Shown: positions 13,867-21,425 of the stretch, piece after piece
Layout of the letters: every line of letters begins with the position of its first letter
Numbering within the stretch: position 1 is the stretch's first letter
Assembly: GCA_024234615.1 (NCBI GenBank)
Contig: JACKNY010000001.1
Span: 1,030,334-1,094,333, forward strand
DNA from: Pseudomonadales bacterium
Lineage (GTDB): Bacteria > Pseudomonadota > Gammaproteobacteria > Pseudomonadales > IMCC2047
Length of the DNA stretch: 64,000 bases
Direction: 5' to 3'
Notes under the pieces: model-generated
Told to the model about the DNA's origin: nothing
Seen by the model: only the letters and a program-made list of their open reading frames with translations
Database searches by the model: none
Program-made: the position numbers and the translations under genes

Positions 13867-15069
13867 TTAGGACCTACTTTTTACAAATCGTCGAATTGAA
13901 CCACTTTGCTTTTCTTGAATGCGGTGCTGTGCCCAAGGGTGGATGCCCATTATTTCATCGTCTCGGCATATATTTCTATTTATGAGATAATTGACAGCAG
14001 GGTTTATCCGTCTGGGGCTCCAATCAAACTTTTCTGCAATTTCAGTTAGACTTGTTGGAAAACGTTCATCATTTAGAATAGCTGAGGCCATTCTTAGAGC
14101 GTCTTTGTCAGGCTCCCACCCCATAAATGCTTTATCAAACTCCACAAATAACTCATTTTCAGGGATAATACTGTAGTGCTCTTCTTTGAAAAATGGTCTC
14201 AATTCATAAAGCCCATCTTCTATGTCTTTTTGGGTTAGCCCTGTTTCTTGAACTAAATCATCCATCTCAAGCATTGGGTCATGACTGGTTCCTGTTTCTG
14301 ACTTTGAACAAAAAACGTTAGCAATAGCTGTTGCAGCCACACTAAAACCGGTATCTGGCAATTCTTCATCTATAGGTGCTTTCCCTAAGGTGGGCTTTTT
14401 TGAAATTCCATGAATATCGTTTATCAACTGAGATAGGTCGAGTTCTTCAGTGACCTCAGGACTAAAATGTCCCGATAACAGAGCTGGTAATTTTTCGTGA
14501 GAAAGATTAAAACGTAATGGAATAAATTTGCACTTTTTGTCAAGCATGCGCACTAAACCTGCATCCATTTCCTGTTTAACCCAAGGTTTCTGAATAGCTG
14601 TTGGCGATAACAAAACAATAAAATGCGTGCAAGTACCTAACCCGTCATCAATACGCTGACGAAGGCTATCACCGGAAGCAATTTCCCATTCAGCCCACCA
14701 CGTATCGATCCGGTTACTCATAAGTTCATTAGCAATTTTTCCAGCTAGATCATGATCCTCCCAACCAAAACTAAGGAATACTTTTGGTGACAATACTTTT
14801 CTCCTCTCAACAAAATTCACACTTTTAAGCTCTTCTTCAGGTATTTTACTGCGTACGTGCTGAATAAGCTCTTTTGAACCTTCAACTTTCACAGACAAAT
14901 TATTCAAGTCGTTTCCATAAACTACAACCGTTGGGAATTCTTCTGTTTTAGGATGACGAATAGACCGAAGGCGTTCCGCAAACTCAACCTTAGCTATTTG
15001 TGTAACTCTATCTATTATGCTTTTTTGAAAGTCGCCAGCGTTAAATTTCTTACCGTTAAAAGTCAACAT
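13867..15069 (-). CDS. TIR-domain protein (N-terminal unknown domain, TIR, then a C-terminal region with two winged-helix-like segments)
   Basis: 400 aa. Residues about 95-195 read KVFLSFGWEDHDLAGKIANELMSNRIDTWWAEWEIASGDSLRQRIDDGLGTCTHFIVLLSPTAIQKPWVKQEMDAG. These are the bacterial TIR blocks (FxSxxxxD, GDSL, vLLSp...S.WvxxE). The candidate catalytic Glu167 codon is at 14569-14571. Confidence 0.85.
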   Translation of the reverse strand: MLTFNGKKFNAGDFQKSIIDRVTQIAKVEFAERLRSIRHPKTEEFPTVVVYGNDLNNLSVKVEGSKELIQHVRSKIPEEELKSVNFVERRKVLSPKVFLSFGWEDHDLAGKIANELMSNRIDTWWAEWEIASGDSLRQRIDDGLGTCTHFIVLLSPTAIQKPWVKQEMDAGLVRMLDKKCKFIPLRFNLSHEKLPALLSGHFSPEVTEELDLSQLINDIHGISKKPTLGKAPIDEELPDTGFSVAATAIANVFCSKSETGTSHDPMLEMDDLVQETGLTQKDIEDGLYELRPFFKEEHYSIIPENELFVEFDKAFMGWEPDKDALRMASAILNDERFPTSLTEIAEKFDWSPRRINPAVNYLINRNICRDDEIMGIHPWAQHRIQEKQSGSIRRFVKSRS

Positions 15070-17473: not shown

Positions 17474-17842
17474 TTATGAGAAGTTAATAAGATCACCGTA
17501 ACCCCATATAATTGTGCCTATAGCTGCTGCTGTAAAAGATGTTAAAGATAAGGCTGTATGCAACTTGCCATACTTAATTCTCATTGGCCATAGATGCTCA
17601 TCCCATATGCCCGACATATAAATAAGCCCATGAATGGTGAATAGCATATATTCTGATAGGAGGGCAAGAAAGACCATGATAGAGCCACTACGTTGAAGCC
17701 ATGTTGCTATGGTTTCGTTAGCAGGCATTAAAATACCGATATAAGCAAGAGTAGGTATTGCCACTGCGCCCAAAAGAAGCAATCCACAAATTAGCAAAGT
17801 GGTTACAATTTTTCCTTCTTGTGTCGGAACTTCCGTACTCAT
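17474..17842 (-). CDS. Small membrane protein, about 3 TM helices (first gene of the island cargo)
   Basis: 122 aa with hydrophobic stretches IVTTLLICGLLLLGAVAIPTLAYIGILM, SIMVFLALLSEYMLFTIHGLIYM and ALSLTSFTAAAIGTIIWGYG. It is co-oriented with the three downstream cargo genes. Confidence 0.55.
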   Translation of the reverse strand: MSTEVPTQEGKIVTTLLICGLLLLGAVAIPTLAYIGILMPANETIATWLQRSGSIMVFLALLSEYMLFTIHGLIYMSGIWDEHLWPMRIKYGKLHTALSLTSFTAAAIGTIIWGYGDLINFS

Positions 17843-18073
17843 TGTTTAGTACTCATAAAACGTGATAGAACTGGCCCTTGCAGTCAAAAAGCAAAACTTA
17901 GTCTTTGTCTATAAGGTACGGGAGGAGGGGGTTTGGGAAACACTACCAGGTTACCTCCCTATATACCTCGATAATTGAGATCCTATAGTACAAGATCATT
18001 TTAGCATTGACCAACGTGATATGGTTTATAGGTGTTCTGCTACAAGTGTTTGTACGTGCTGTTGAAAAAAGCT

Positions 18074-18089
18074 GTCCACAAGTCCACAA
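18074..18089. repeat. Perfect tandem octamer GTCCACAA-GTCCACAA (with inverted partial copies at 18158-18165 and 18167-18174)
   Basis: Read directly: GTCCACAAGTCCACAA. The sequences TTGTGGAT and CTGTGGTC about 70 nt downstream are reverse-complement relatives, giving four CCACA(A/G) cores within about 100 nt. Confidence 0.6.
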
Positions 18090-18249
18090 CCCTTACCTTA
18101 TTGCGAAGTGAACCCCATTGCTCGCGCAGCCCGAACGATGATGTTTAGGTTACGTCGTTGTGGATCCTGTGGTCAGGTTTTCCGTTCTGAATGATCGCTT
18201 TAACTATATTTAATCCGCAAGGTGTCCGCTATTATTGGCTGAGACTCCG

Positions 18250-18965
18250 CTCTGCGCCATCGTCACTGCCGAGCGCAGCGGGGTAGTGACGATGGCCCCG
18301 TGCCAGAAACCACGACAGGTGCCGCTCGAATTTCCTAGTTACGGATAAGTTTTCTGTTCTTATACTTGGTGCTATCTATCGAATCTATCCGCACGCCACA
18401 GCGGAAATGTGGCAAGGGGCTCCCGCCCTTGCTTTGGCGAAACGGGAACGGCGTTATAGGGCATCATTGATGCATCAGCCGAAAGGCTGATTGCCCATAT
18501 TTCTCATCACCGTTTTAACGGTTTCTTTAACTCAGCGGGCCGTTGGTTCCGCATTATTTAAGAGGAGGTGATTACTTCACCATGACAGTGGACTCTTTAA
18601 TGAGTCAATTGGTTTGCATCCTACCGGCTCCAACAGGAGCACGGGGATGTCGCCTGAAATCAGGCATATTCAGATTGCAACGGGAGTCGTGTCCCGAGGC
18701 CATTCCGCGAAAGCGGGTCAGTAGGCTACGAGCCTGCGATTGGTCATAAACACTCACCAGAAAGCAACCACACGAGAAGATCTGAATCACCAATTGAAGC
18801 CGCTGTGCAGTAGTATCCACAGCGACAGTTACGACAGTCAAGCCAACCGGCTATCGCTACTGTATCCGCTTATTGATCCTGTAGGGAACGAACAATCAAA
18901 GCATGGATTTACTTTCGCCTGTTTTGTTGGGTAGCAAAAGTCATTCGAAACCGCTTCGGTCTGTG
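18250..18965 (+). ncRNA. Candidate structured non-coding RNA / long structured leader upstream of alpA (family not identified)
   Basis: No ORF of 80 aa or more occurs across about 1.15 kb (17843-19037), and the stretch is GC-rich relative to the cargo. Several perfect hairpins are present. 18256-18267/18285-18296 is a 12-bp stem. 18395-18413 pairs GCCACA with TGTGGC. 18412-18432 is a 7-bp stem. 18474-18491 pairs ATCAGCC with GGCTGAT around a GAAA loop. 18509-18522, 18652-18665 and 18681-18696 are further hairpins. 18705-18716 is CCGC-GAAA-GCGG, and 18950-18960 is another. The GAAA loops read as GNRA only on the + strand. Confidence 0.3.
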
Positions 18966-19037
18966 TAGGCTTTTGCCGTTGTTTTCTCCTTGTTATTGCC
19001 TAGCATAGAGACGCTAGACAAAAGCAAGGAGACGTAT

Positions 19038-19220
19038 ATGAGTTTCAGAATCTTAAGGTTAAAAGAGGTCCAGCAGGTGACAGGATTATCCCGTTCAACT
19101 ATTTATGCCGAAATCGCCAAAGGTAAATTTCCCAAGCAGGTGAAACTCACCGGTGCTCGCTCTGTCGGTTGGCCTGAAAGTGTTATTGTGCAGTGGGTTG
19201 AATCCCGGCGGCAGGTGTAA
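19038..19220 (+). CDS. alpA: AlpA-family (MerR-like HTH) prophage/island regulator-excisionase
   Basis: 60 aa: MSFRILRLKEVQQVTGLSRSTIYAEIAKGKFPKQVKLTGARSVGWPESVIVQWVESR, the canonical AlpA pattern. The ATG at 19038 is preceded by AAGGAG. Confidence 0.85.
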   Translation: MSFRILRLKEVQQVTGLSRSTIYAEIAKGKFPKQVKLTGARSVGWPESVIVQWVESRRQV

Positions 19221-19251: not shown

Positions 19252-19539
19252 TTACTTTAATGCCTCCTCAATATCTTCACGGCTTATTATTCGCACAATT
19301 TCAGCACAAGCTTGGCTCTGTCGGTAATAGATCGAGTGCACGCCGTACACACTACGGCGGCATCCCTCCAAATATTGGTCAGCGAGGGGATACATAAAAG
19401 GGCTATTCCCTATTGCCTCGAATCGCTGCTCCATGCCTTCGGCGTAACATTCCGCTTGCTCATAGCCAAAGTTCTCTATTCCATATTGATAAAGTCTCGC
19501 ATAATCAGCTGCTGCTTTATTGGTCAGTTTATAGGTCAT
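19252..19539 (-). CDS. parE: ParE/RelE-family type II toxin
   Basis: 95 aa: MTYKLTNKAAADYARLYQYGIENFGYEQAECYAEGMEQRFEAI...IVRIISRE. The pattern is typical of ParE. It overlaps the upstream antitoxin gene by 4 nt. Confidence 0.85.
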   Translation of the reverse strand: MTYKLTNKAAADYARLYQYGIENFGYEQAECYAEGMEQRFEAIGNSPFMYPLADQYLEGCRRSVYGVHSIYYRQSQACAEIVRIISREDIEEALK

Positions 19540-19784
19540 TCACCTGTCCGCTTTCCGTCCCTGATATCCTGCCTGATCTGAGCAGGGGTTAACTCCGACA
19601 AACCGCTTTTGATACCTTCCTGCAGCAGGGCCCGGATCGCTTCTGCTTCCGAACTTTCTCTTCTCCTCGCTTGCCGTATCAAGTCGTTTACAACTTCGCT
19701 ATTGCTACCGTACTCCTTACTTTCTATCTGCGCTTTTAGCCAATCAGCATTGGGCTCGGTAATTGTGATGCTTTGTCTTGGCAT
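19536..19784 (-). CDS. parD: ParD-family (ribbon-helix-helix) type II antitoxin
   Basis: 82 aa: MPRQSITITEPNADWLKAQIESKEYGSNSEVVNDLIRQARRRE...ALLQEGIKSG. This is ParD/COG3609-like and is translationally coupled to parE. Confidence 0.85.
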   Translation of the reverse strand: MPRQSITITEPNADWLKAQIESKEYGSNSEVVNDLIRQARRRESSEAEAIRALLQEGIKSGLSELTPAQIRQDIRDGKRTGE

Positions 19785-19909: not shown

Positions 19910-21139
19910 TCAAAGGTTATTAACCCTGGAAAAAAGCGGCACCACCTTATTGGTAACCCGCATTTCATCTAGATAATCGGCCCACCATTGCATCATCTTG
20001 TATCGTTCTTCCAGGTAACGAGCGTGGTGGGTATAGGCAGCTCTTACGCCGTTCCGCTCCTGGTGGGCCAGTTGGCGCTCGATAGCGTCCGGGTTAAAGC
20101 CAGATTCGTTCAGTATCGAAGAGGCGGTGGCTCTAAAGCCGTGGGGAACAGCTTTACTCTTGCCAGGATGTTTGCCGTCGTAGCCAAGCTTAAATATGGC
20201 CTGACGCATGGTGTTGTCGGACATGGGTTGGTCGCGGTAGCGCTCGGATGGAAAAATCAGTTCGTATTTACCGGTCATGCCCTGCAGTAGTTCGAGTAGA
20301 TCCAACGCCTGAGGGGCGAGGGGAACTAGGTGTTCGGTACTCATCTTCATACGGGCGGCGGGGATTCGCCATACTTTGTTTTCGAAGTCGAACTCGACCC
20401 AGCGTGCGCCGCGCAGCTCGCCGGAACGGACAAAGGTAAGCAATAGGAGTTTGATTGCTCGTTTCGTCAGCAAGCGGCCACCGTAGGTTTCCAGCTCCCT
20501 AAGAAATTGAGGAAGTTCCTCCCTGGGTAGGGAAGGGTGATGTTGCACTTTCCTTTGTCTAACAATGCCGTCCAGATCGCTAGCTGGGTTACGGGTGGCG
20601 ATGCCCGTTTGTATCCCAAATCGGCAAATAGCTTTAATGGCCTGCTTGACGCGATTAGCAACGTCGAGAGCATCTCGGGCTTCAATTTTTCGAATGGTTG
20701 CTATTACCTGCATGGGAGTAATTTCATCGATGGTCAGATATCCCAGATCAGCAAAGGCGTTGTCTTCAAGACGCTTGAGTACTCGGGCCGCGTGGGTAGG
20801 CGTCCAGGTAGCGCGGTAATGATCCCACCATTGGCGGGCGACTGCCTCAAAGTGGTACATTTTCTGCGCGCGCTTTTCCTCTTTGCGCACGGCGCTGGGG
20901 TCTTGATCGTTACTGATTTGAATTTTTGCTGAGCGAAGTTTTTCCCGTGCGTCCTTGAGGCTGACCTGGGGATAGATGCCCAGGGCGATGGTTTTGCGTT
21001 TGCCGCGAAAGCGGTAATCCATACGCCAGTACTTGTTGCCGTTCTTTTTGACCAGCAAATACATACCGCCGCCATCATACAATTTGTAATCTTTGTCGCG
21101 GGGTTTTGCATCCTTGATGTGGATATTCACCAGAGCCAT
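19910..21139 (-). CDS. int: P4-type tyrosine integrase (DUF4102 N-terminal arm-binding domain + phage integrase catalytic domain)
   Basis: 409 aa. The N terminus reads IKDAKPRDKDYKLYDGGGMYLLVKKNGNKYWRMDYRFRGKRKTIALGIYPQVSLKDAR. The C terminus has ...RSGELRGARW..., HGFRATASSIL and ...LAH...AYTH. It lies adjacent to, and co-oriented with, tRNA-Leu. Confidence 0.95.
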   Translation of the reverse strand: MALVNIHIKDAKPRDKDYKLYDGGGMYLLVKKNGNKYWRMDYRFRGKRKTIALGIYPQVSLKDAREKLRSAKIQISNDQDPSAVRKEEKRAQKMYHFEAVARQWWDHYRATWTPTHAARVLKRLEDNAFADLGYLTIDEITPMQVIATIRKIEARDALDVANRVKQAIKAICRFGIQTGIATRNPASDLDGIVRQRKVQHHPSLPREELPQFLRELETYGGRLLTKRAIKLLLLTFVRSGELRGARWVEFDFENKVWRIPAARMKMSTEHLVPLAPQALDLLELLQGMTGKYELIFPSERYRDQPMSDNTMRQAIFKLGYDGKHPGKSKAVPHGFRATASSILNESGFNPDAIERQLAHQERNGVRAAYTHHARYLEERYKMMQWWADYLDEMRVTNKVVPLFSRVNNL

Positions 21140-21338: not shown

Positions 21339-21425
21339 TGGTGCCCGGGGCCGGAATCGAACCGGCACGATGTTGCCATCGAGGGATTTTAAGTCCCTTG
21401 CGTCTACCAATTTCGCCACCCGGGC
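21339..21425 (-). tRNA. leuZ: tRNA-Leu (anticodon TAA), integration target of the island
   Basis: The reverse complement is GCCCGGGTGGCGAAATTGGTAGACGCAAGGGACTTAAAATCCCTCGATGGCAACATCGTGCCGGTTCGATTCCGGCCCCGGGCACCA. It has a long variable arm, anticodon loop CTTAAAA and an encoded CCA. Confidence 0.9.

Follow-up and report, generated by a model that had tools for sequence, protein, structure and literature searches.

The 64,000-nucleotide stretch of Pseudomonadales DNA analysed here (assembly GCA_024234615.1, contig JACKNY010000001.1; this whole stretch is called the window below) has a non-coding block at positions 17843-19037, in the gap between the first cargo gene of a small defence island and alpA. 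On balance, the block is probably a composite mobilisation (mob) module that became detached from its relaxase gene and stands before alpA. Its core, approximately 18068-18790, is homologous to the 700-800 nt directly 5' of a 288-aa gene in integrative and conjugative elements (ICEs) belonging to the PFGI-1/ICEclc class in Gammaproteobacteria. The core keeps a secondary structure with compensatory changes, shows a strand bias and contains a conserved promoter motif, in a genome without relaxase or type IV secretion system (T4SS) genes. Judged from the position of the homologues, the native partner of the block is this mpsA-like, relaxase-type gene heading pilL2 and the T4SS genes, and not alpA. 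We infer that part of the block is made as RNA, that another part would act as an origin of transfer (oriT) and that the island would depend on a helper ICE.

Homologues were collected with protein and DNA searches. The protein search, which sampled the class and the order with 400 genomes each, gave approximately 60 loci. In other families, a first DNA profile built from four same-genus sequences alone matches the region just 5' of the Integrase_1 gene at E 3e-48 to 1.7e-25. A broader profile finds full or partial homologues at about 35 loci. A covariance model of the 3' domain (R1, 175 positions) has 42 matches at E below 1e-5, all on the strand of, and upstream of, the mpsA-like gene; 10 of 151 sampled genomes of the order (about 7%) have a match. 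The copy in the window scores 158 bits, within the range of intact ICE copies.

The 288-aa protein has the domains Phage_int_SAM_2 and Integrase_1 (PF12835), and more than 7,700 homologues of it exist, thousands of them at about 70% identity. A tblastn search of plasmid records led to a Salmonella record with a 321-aa PF12835 protein, encoded downstream of a UvrD-type helicase gene, in which R162, H247, R250, H251 and Y319 are the published catalytic residues of MpsA from Salmonella Genomic Island 1 (SGI1) (PMC6414798). The ICE protein and this MpsA-type protein belong to the same Pfam family and are 32% identical (E 8e-24). The ICE protein is thus a homologue of SGI1 MpsA, and by this homology a predicted tyrosine-recombinase-like relaxase. 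The mob module of SGI1 (mobSGI1) consists of the promoter P5, oriT_SGI1, sgm-sRNA, mpsA and mpsB (PMC6414798, PMC9299015). MpsA, MobK of pIGRK and TcpM of pCW3 are the tyrosine-recombinase-like 'MOB_M' relaxases, and their oriTs are located just upstream of the gene (PMC6414798, PMC8152469).

In the same-genus ICE of G001 the 288-aa gene is followed by PilL2, TIGR03759, an SLT lytic transglycosylase, PFL_4695, TraD (TIGR03754) and TIGR03747, while PFGI-1 ParB and a replication protein of the STY4528 family are encoded upstream of the block. The same-genus elements that bear the block are PFGI-1/ICEclc/PAPI-1-class ICEs. PilL2 (TIGR03748) is the next gene after the mpsA-like gene in G001, G078, G329 and G404, and no mpsB-like gene was found directly after it in these four genomes, the rest of the ICE not being included in that search. 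The gene directly downstream is therefore of the tyrosine-recombinase-like relaxase type in the ICE homologues and alpA in the window.

The preliminary description, based on the sequence alone, had presented the block as lacking any open reading frame (ORF) of 80 aa or more, as richer in GC than the cargo and as dense in hairpins, and all of this holds. The longest ORFs wholly within 17843-19037 are 78 aa (18605-18841, minus strand), 68 aa (18543-18749, plus strand), 64 aa and 48 aa, and these four have no Pfam match above cut-off. GC is 0.43-0.51 in the block and 0.36-0.42 in the cargo, and every listed hairpin was recovered in an inverted-repeat search. The folding energy of 18040-18810 is -273.8 kcal/mol on the plus strand (z -5.2) and -262.9 on the minus strand (z -4.5), values that none of 20 dinucleotide shuffles matched on either strand. 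The earlier statement that no known RNA family fits is upheld by a scan of the window and five diverse homologues against Rfam 15 at permissive E-values, where tRNAs alone reached threshold and the best other hit had E >1. There was no match to the block in a blastn search of plasmid, phage and E. coli collections, nor in a metagenome scan with the pattern of the 12-bp hairpin described below. An exact-pattern contig scan with the CCACA motif returned only three same-genus loci, all already known. The genome carries a single copy of the block, a single alpA and a single P4-type integrase of this sort.

The elements of the core are given here from 5' to 3':

18068..18180, plus strand: long-range helix of 18068-18080 with 18168-18180, the arms being GTCCACAA octamers and their inverted partners
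18256..18296, plus strand: hairpin with a 12-bp stem and a near-invariant 17-nt loop, (A/G)(G/C)CGAGCGCAGCGGGGT
18338..18366, plus strand: sigma70-like promoter GTTACG, 17 nt, TATACT, with a predicted start near 18373
18395..18495, plus strand: leader hairpins, one at 18395-18413 (GCCACA/TGTGGC) and a nested stem at 18461-18495 with its inner stem at 18472-18494
18509..18530, plus strand: terminator-like hairpin ACCGTT/AACGGT followed by TTTCTTT, from a terminator scan
18562..18572, plus strand: almost invariant GAGGAGGTGAT, complementary to the 3' end of 16S rRNA
18587..18762, plus strand: 3' structured domain, 175 nt, model R1, with the following parts
18592-18605, plus strand: H1
18614-18649, plus strand: H2, inner stem 18627-18640
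18652-18656 with 18661-18665, plus strand: S1
18658-18660 with 18674-18676, plus strand: pseudoknot S2
18681-18696, plus strand: H4, with conserved loop GUNGUG
18698-18701 with 18742-18745, plus strand: H5, closing a three-way junction that holds H6 and H7
18705-18716, plus strand: H6
18721-18737, plus strand: H7
18746-18758, plus strand: conserved tail AUAAACACUCACC

The structure of the whole core was predicted with RNAalifold from an alignment of 11 sequences. It has 113 pairs, of which 53 show compensatory double changes, compared with 9-17 in slid controls where the 3' partner was moved by 1-3 columns. Cells are paired in 93.4% of cases (30-40% in the slid controls) and the covariation score is 0.362 (at most 0.077 in the slid controls). 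None of 500 shuffles reaches the observed value on four of the five measures; the fifth, further pair types, was reached by 25 of 500. RNAalifold failed through misregister on the raw MAFFT alignments, whether of 34 or of 16 diverse sequences, and a hand-drawn structure of the 3' domain and a covariance model took its place. Among 34 homologues 38 of its 49 pairs have a compensatory change, 81.7% of cells are paired (34-49% in slid controls), no shuffle out of 500 reaches the observed values, and both S1 and S2 of the pseudoknot are supported by covariation. A cleaner alignment of 25 sequences agrees, with only the further pair types being reached by shuffles (3 of 500). Across the structure tests the covariation score is 0.35-0.40 and at most 0.15 in slid controls.

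The preliminary description had proposed that homologous regions be collected and checked for covariation, and the compensatory changes found in them are far above the controls. The stems at 18256-18296, 18395-18413, 18472-18494, 18509-18522, 18652-18665, 18681-18696 and 18705-18716, which it had picked out, are conserved with such changes. The stem at 18950-18960 is present as described and lies outside the widely conserved part. The mutually exclusive 'switch' pairing proposed for 18247-18283 is peculiar to this copy and was rejected, as the homologues read CCGATCTACGC there. The two GAAA loops that had been emphasised are not kept as GAAA among homologues; the loop at 18474-18491 is GAAA, GCAA, GCCA or other. 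Two additional pairings were considered and dropped, a kissing interaction of the H4 loop with the AAACACU tail and base pairs between GGUGA and U(N)ACC close to the start codon, neither of which shows consistent covariation.

The plus strand, which is the strand of alpA, is favoured because of the covariation, the UNCG and GNRA loops, the excess of G-U and the position of the homologues 5' of a gene on the same strand. The alifold energy is -116.5 kcal/mol on the plus strand and -99.5 on the minus strand, with covariation terms of -10.0 and -6.1. In the 84 pairs of about 115 that are predicted on both strands there are 35 G-U against 16 A-C, and in the hand-drawn 3' domain 105 against 65, a modest bias of approximately 1.6-2.2 to 1. 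The loops are stronger strand evidence than these wobbles. The H7 loop is UNCG (UACG, UUCG or UGCG) in 15 of 34 homologues and UACG plus one nucleotide in 7 more, and the H6 loop at 18705-18716 is GNRA in 9 and UUCG or CUCG in 3 of the 34; these loops read as UNCG and GNRA on the plus strand only. RNA is favoured because of the tetraloops, the pseudoknot covarying in both stems and the fact that in most homologues a start codon on the same strand follows the domain after about 20 nt. The earlier proposal of a structured leader or non-coding RNA directed towards alpA is thus sustained as regards a conserved, structured, non-coding element on the plus strand, and not as regards alpA as its native partner.

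A conserved promoter lies inside the block, and for this reason the block is divided into a 5' half that resembles a DNA site and a 3' half that would be RNA. Among 16 homologues the -10 sequence is TATACT, TAAACT, TATAGT, TAAAGT, TAGAGT or, in one, GATACT; its A2 and T6 never vary. Fifteen of the 16 have a 17-nt spacer, and the -35 sequence resembles GT(T/G)AC(A/G). The site falls below the threshold of a consensus promoter scan. This arrangement suggests that only the 3' half, from about 18373 onward, need be RNA, and a transfer-origin or operator region would account for the 5' half equally well. Covariation extends to the helices upstream of the promoter, and on that ground they must act in single-stranded form, either as transferred DNA or in a longer RNA. 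The 'origin' alternative of the preliminary description stays viable for the 5' half, on the side of the 12-bp hairpin, only.

The long-range CCACA helix in the 5' half (RNAalifold helix 1) is 88% paired, with three outer pairs and one inner pair covarying. It encloses hairpins at 18108-18125 and 18137-18166, and an enclosed hairpin persists through a complete change of sequence, GGGGCCGC/GCGGCGCC in one form and ACGATG/CGTCGT in the other. ICEs of other families have kept the CCACA octamers. A reading of them as DnaA boxes of a replication origin (oriV) was set aside as they are the arms of a helix conserved in ICEs, and the suggestion of an att-arm region finds no support, since the octamers are kept in other-family ICEs and their flanks covary as a helix.

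The 12-bp hairpin is 97.7% paired over 11 homologues, with A-T to C-G compensatory changes and G-T wobbles on the plus strand. Its loop contains AGCGA and a run of G, the invariant loop being AGCGAGCGCAGCGGGG. The MpsA-like enzyme might recognise or nick this hairpin, which makes it a candidate oriT; alternatively the hairpin would belong to a longer RNA. A second, solo copy of this 41-bp hairpin, 93% identical and on the same strand, is found in the G001 ICE (L012 7815-7855) and in the matching place in G002:C2. It is located 3.6 kb away across the TIR cargo, so that two copies bracket the cargo in these ICEs, and it is absent from both small islands of the genus. The second copy could be a second oriT or a recombination site. 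ICEclc has two oriTs. In a bolder variant, which we hold to be doubtful, the two copies flanking the ICE cargo would be recombination sites for a cassette-like exchange of defence genes.

In the 3' half, the leader hairpins (RNAalifold helices 9 and 10) are 100% and 85% paired, and their compensatory changes include A-U to U-A and CAGCC/GGCUG to CGGC/GCCG to CGACC/GGUCG. The terminator-like stem covaries as well (CCGCG/CGCGG in G001) and is followed by a T-rich tract in most homologues. The anti-16S element GGAGGUGAU stands at the 5' edge of the 3' domain, partly sequestered by the hairpin GGTGA/TCACC (18566-18581), and GGAGGTG is invariant or nearly so in both alignments A2 and A3. No conserved start codon follows the element among homologues. 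In L027, L028 and L048 (A2 columns 860-930) a 4-codon ORF (MKPH or MKPP, then stop) begins 4-6 nt past GGAGGUGAU, a possible stalling leader peptide that is not conserved in the lineage of the window.

Copies of the 3' domain or of other parts of the block in other settings were also seen. No mpsA-like gene stands within 1.5 kb of an orphan copy of the domain, L094 (G547:C2:325587-325763), that scores 140.8 bits, while L104 (G547:C1) is followed by only the first 58 codons of an mpsA-like gene. A decayed fragment at L010 1500-1610 (G002:C2, about 344.2 kb) extends from the hairpin to the promoter region at 79% identity, away from the examined ICE genes. In a divergent subgroup (L070, L077-L080, L083, L087 and L089) the 3' domain is 275-440 nt from the mpsA-like start, not about 20 nt; the 5' half is replaced, and something is inserted between leader and gene.

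The source organism was detected in activated sludge and wastewater runs. Metatranscriptome contigs from three runs in two studies cover 18256-18296, 18321-18479, 18531-18666 and 18577-18897, the 18531-18666 contig being 100% identical with adapter-flanked ends, and contigs of ICE relatives run into the start of the mpsA-like gene. At a depth of 2-10, with DNA carry-over possible, these contigs are a weak hint of transcription of the block, and parts of it that have no cover do not thereby count as untranscribed.

The island that holds the block is 7.7 kb and consists of tRNA-Leu, int, parDE, alpA, the block and the TIR cargo. It bears an integrase and no relaxase or mating-pore genes. Its features, with those of the parts of the block outside the core, are:

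13867-15069, minus strand: TIR protein in which the four-gene cargo ends
17474-17842, minus strand: first cargo gene, a 122-aa membrane protein
17873..18060, no strand assigned: cargo-side arm, found only within the genus, in two islands and two ICE copies
18014-18009 and 17990-17985, minus strand: promoter-like site TTGGTC, 18 nt, TACTAT, read from the sequence and facing the defence cargo
18807..19037, plus strand: spacer particular to the island, separating the ICE-derived block from alpA and shared, at 88% and to 19015, with no locus but the G002:C23 island
19038-19220, plus strand: alpA, 60 aa, PF05930 (Pfam E 8.5e-20), the first gene downstream of the block
19252-19784, minus strand: ParD/ParE
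19910-21139, minus strand: P4-type integrase
21339-21425: tRNA-Leu(UAA)

Two further species of the genus proved to carry the block when the whole genomes of relatives were searched. In the island G002:C23, which has the same architecture, the block is 88% identical over 1151 nt and the alpA nucleotides are 93.7% identical. This island differs in its tRNA-Leu (GAG), its Phd/ParE toxin-antitoxin pair, an integrase that is barely alignable and a wholly different cargo (ThsB-TIR, Nmad2, TIR-SLOG, MazG_C and UDG). The block and alpA are accordingly far better conserved between the two islands than the integrases. Paired positions differ in 4.7% and unpaired positions in 11.8% of cases between the two island copies (2.5-fold), and six of the nine changed pairs still pair. 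In the ICE copies G001:C1 and G002:C2 the block is 78-80% identical over 949 nt and sits between another TIR cargo and the 288-aa Integrase_1 gene. Homology to these ICEs is restricted to 17873-18807, where 18807 aligns with the start codon of the Integrase_1 gene and is 230 nt short of alpA. Its start is exactly 17873 in all three related loci, each beside a different TIR-based cargo. Approximately 90 nt present in every ICE copy are missing from both island copies. G002 holds both the island and ICEs, whereas the genome of the window (G000) holds the island only; no TraD (TIGR03754), no mpsA-like gene and, in searches run without a positive control, no MOBH relaxase (TIGR03760, PF07514) were found in it.

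The cargo-side arm stands beside three unrelated TIR-based cargos (window 17873-18060; L012 11098-11280; L014 8826-9010) and looks like a fixed expression platform or a recombination boundary for swappable defence cassettes. The minus-strand promoter-like site in it is not listed by the consensus promoter scan. A 70-bp core of the arm (17947-18015) recurs at 79-83% identity in L004 666-734 (G004:C92) and L011 334-379 (G002:C17). In G004 it comes just 3' of a protein of 400-480 aa that, with its HUH-like motif (HVHIL) and a second motif resembling YxxK, looks like a rolling-circle Rep. At the other end, 18985-19004 and 19013-19032 form an inverted repeat with 20-nt arms that are 85% complementary, and its 3' arm covers the Shine-Dalgarno sequence of alpA, so that alpA translation could be blocked by it. 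In the G002:C23 island an insertion of 110 nt stands in place of this region.

The island might have co-opted the module for hitch-hiking, an idea that comes from analogy with islands mobilised by SXT, with SGI1 and with oriT-only islands. The 5' half, 18068-18337, would then be cis-acting DNA, a candidate transfer origin and/or operator. From about 18373 a structured leader RNA of approximately 400 nt would be made, comprising the hairpins, the terminator-like stem, the anti-16S element and the 175-nt domain. The signals by which an active helper ICE induces its own leader would also fire the island copy, driving alpA and thereby excision, and the 5' hairpin region would let the MpsA-like enzyme and T4SS of the helper mobilise the island in trans. 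A further speculation, which we consider doubtful, is that the 175-nt RNA is an obligate partner of the MpsA-like relaxase. It would be the counterpart of sgm-sRNA in a ribonucleoprotein relaxosome and would help the enzyme to find or process the hairpin, so that islands would carry the RNA and the hairpin in order to capture the enzyme of a helper.

Other explanations differ in how much of the core is RNA and in whether it still has a function. Covarying helices span the whole core, also 5' of the internal promoter, and this would fit a single long structured RNA of 18068-18790 that starts upstream of the CCACA helix and serves as a regulatory leader or a processed trans-acting RNA like sgm-sRNA, with no oriT. 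Among the RNA-library contigs, those of ICE relatives take in the 12-bp hairpin together with its 5' flank, and the primary RNA of SGI1 likewise spans its oriT (PMC9299015). We consider this unlikely, as the consensus scan lists no recognisable promoter upstream of 18068, cross-family conservation begins abruptly at the CCACA helix, the invariant -35/-10 positions with their 17-nt spacing are hard to explain as RNA structure, and the near-invariant 17-nt loop and the solo second hairpin copy resemble a protein recognition site. The opposite extreme, that the structure acts in single-stranded DNA only, as oriT and leading-region elements (a single-strand promoter or priming signal) and with no functional RNA structure, is somewhat less credible still. 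The interchange of UACG, UUCG and UGCG with C-G closing pairs, the GNRA loops and the covarying pseudoknot are hallmarks of RNA, most homologues have a start codon on the same strand some 20 nt past the end of the 3' domain, and an invariant anti-16S element is present. These outweigh for us the facts that both strands fold better than shuffles, that 84 of about 115 predicted pairs are common to them, that DNA hairpins tolerate G-T wobbles and that inverted repeats abound in the oriTs of this relaxase class (PMC6414798, PMC8152469).

The block might also be an inert remnant of a decayed ICE beside alpA, functionless in the island now, which we hold to be improbable. It would fit the lack of a helper ICE, a relaxase and a T4SS in the genome of the window, the orphan and truncated copies seen in G547, the decayed fragment in G002:C2, the absence from both islands of the roughly 90 nt found in all ICE copies, and the 12 of 113 pairs that are unpaired in the window copy, six of them through this deletion. 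A remnant would not be expected to stay at 88%, with alpA at 94%, across islands that differ in integrase, tRNA target, toxin-antitoxin and cargo, nor to have stems that evolve 2.5-fold slower than unpaired positions with changed pairs mostly still pairing, and its 158 bits are in the range of intact ICE copies. A decayed protein gene, for example a primase or helicase, which the preliminary description had named among the findings that would overturn its view, has practically no chance of being correct. It is suggested by the size of the gap only; 15 homologues have no consistent shared frame, no internal ORF matches a Pfam family above cut-off, and substitutions follow base pairs and not codons.

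Several points weigh against the interpretation as a mob module with an RNA-coding 3' half. The transcript start, the nick site and the mobilisation of the block are predictions made from the sequence. That the MpsA-like protein serves the ICE as its relaxase is likewise a deduction. The MOBH profile TIGR03760 had no match in G000-G002, G078, G329, G350, G404 and G617, and PF07514 none in G000-G002, both in searches run without a positive control; if this absence is real, the MpsA-like protein may be the sole relaxase of these ICEs. The helices 5' of the proposed promoter covary, which implies action as single-stranded DNA or an RNA that starts further upstream, like the primary transcript of SGI1. 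The wobble bias is modest, the RNA contigs are shallow and might derive from DNA, no helper ICE accompanies the island in its genome, and the copies in G547 illustrate that leaders can be left behind by decay. An nhmmer profile had no match to the SGI1 mob region at E below 100, and R1 had none to the SGI1 locus (L060) at E up to 1. Because neither model finds anything in SGI1, the parallel with SGI1 is one of architecture and neighbouring protein, and not of the RNA or the oriT.

Structured non-coding motifs near integrase, alpA or ICE genes are known in Rfam as the int-alpA, STAXI, radC and DUF3577 motifs, ICE- or integrase-associated, and no Rfam 15 family matches the window or the five homologues. 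In the plasmid pIGRK the minimal oriT is located just upstream of the mobK promoter, and AGCGA motifs and a G-rich tract have been reported there (PMC8152469). MobK is a tyrosine-recombinase-like relaxase as well, and the loop AGCGAGCGCAGCGGGG resembles the pIGRK motifs by that paper's description only. pIGRK differs in being a small plasmid for which no structured RNA is described.

Islands that have an oriT and no relaxase ('iOriT' hitchers) have been described with defence genes concentrated near oriT (bioRxiv 10.64898/2026.01.13.699239), and mobilisable genomic islands (MGIs) mobilised by SXT are attributed to Daccord et al. 2010 in the citation given by PMC6414798. The island in the window is similar in being small, bearing an integrase and lacking relaxase and T4SS. 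It shares only a non-coding stretch, a candidate oriT, with a conjugative element of the same genus, and an AlpA-type factor and defence genes adjoin this stretch. It differs in the unusual length of the shared stretch (about 940 nt), which also has a structured RNA-like domain and a promoter and whose role as oriT is putative.

The closest parallel in architecture is SGI1, where an oriT and an RNA of 650-700 nt are located upstream of mpsA and the RNA is processed to sgm-sRNA, which is essential for transfer (PMC6414798, PMC9299015). The ICE homologues of the block likewise precede a PF12835 homologue of MpsA (32% identity, with the R..HxxRH..Y catalytic residues), the upstream region is non-coding, hairpin-dense and about 700 nt long, and a terminator-like stem occurs inside the leader in both. 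In SGI1 the functional part of the RNA is the 3' portion beside the gene. On the other hand, PilL2 and not an mpsB-like gene follows in the ICEs, the native host of the block is a self-transmissible ICE whereas SGI1 is an IncC-dependent island, and the relaxase gene is missing altogether in the window.

The architecture of the module is thus already known from SGI1. What is new is that PFGI-1-class ICEs carry a distinct, widely conserved leader that is supported by covariation and absent from Rfam, and with it come a concrete junction-plus-pseudoknot model of its 3' domain, a conserved putative internal promoter and an apparently orphaned copy heading alpA. The leader is a candidate new RNA family for Rfam. 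The orphan copy before alpA suggests a way in which a 7.7-kb defence island devoid of transfer genes could detect a helper ICE and make use of it, and such helper-sensing bears on the spread of anti-phage cargo. MOB_M relaxases are poorly understood, and to our knowledge the sgm-sRNA of SGI1 is the one RNA known to be required for a MOB_M system, with no known mechanism or structure. The leader, its structure model, the predicted promoter and the candidate hairpin offer direct experimental handles on this class of relaxases.

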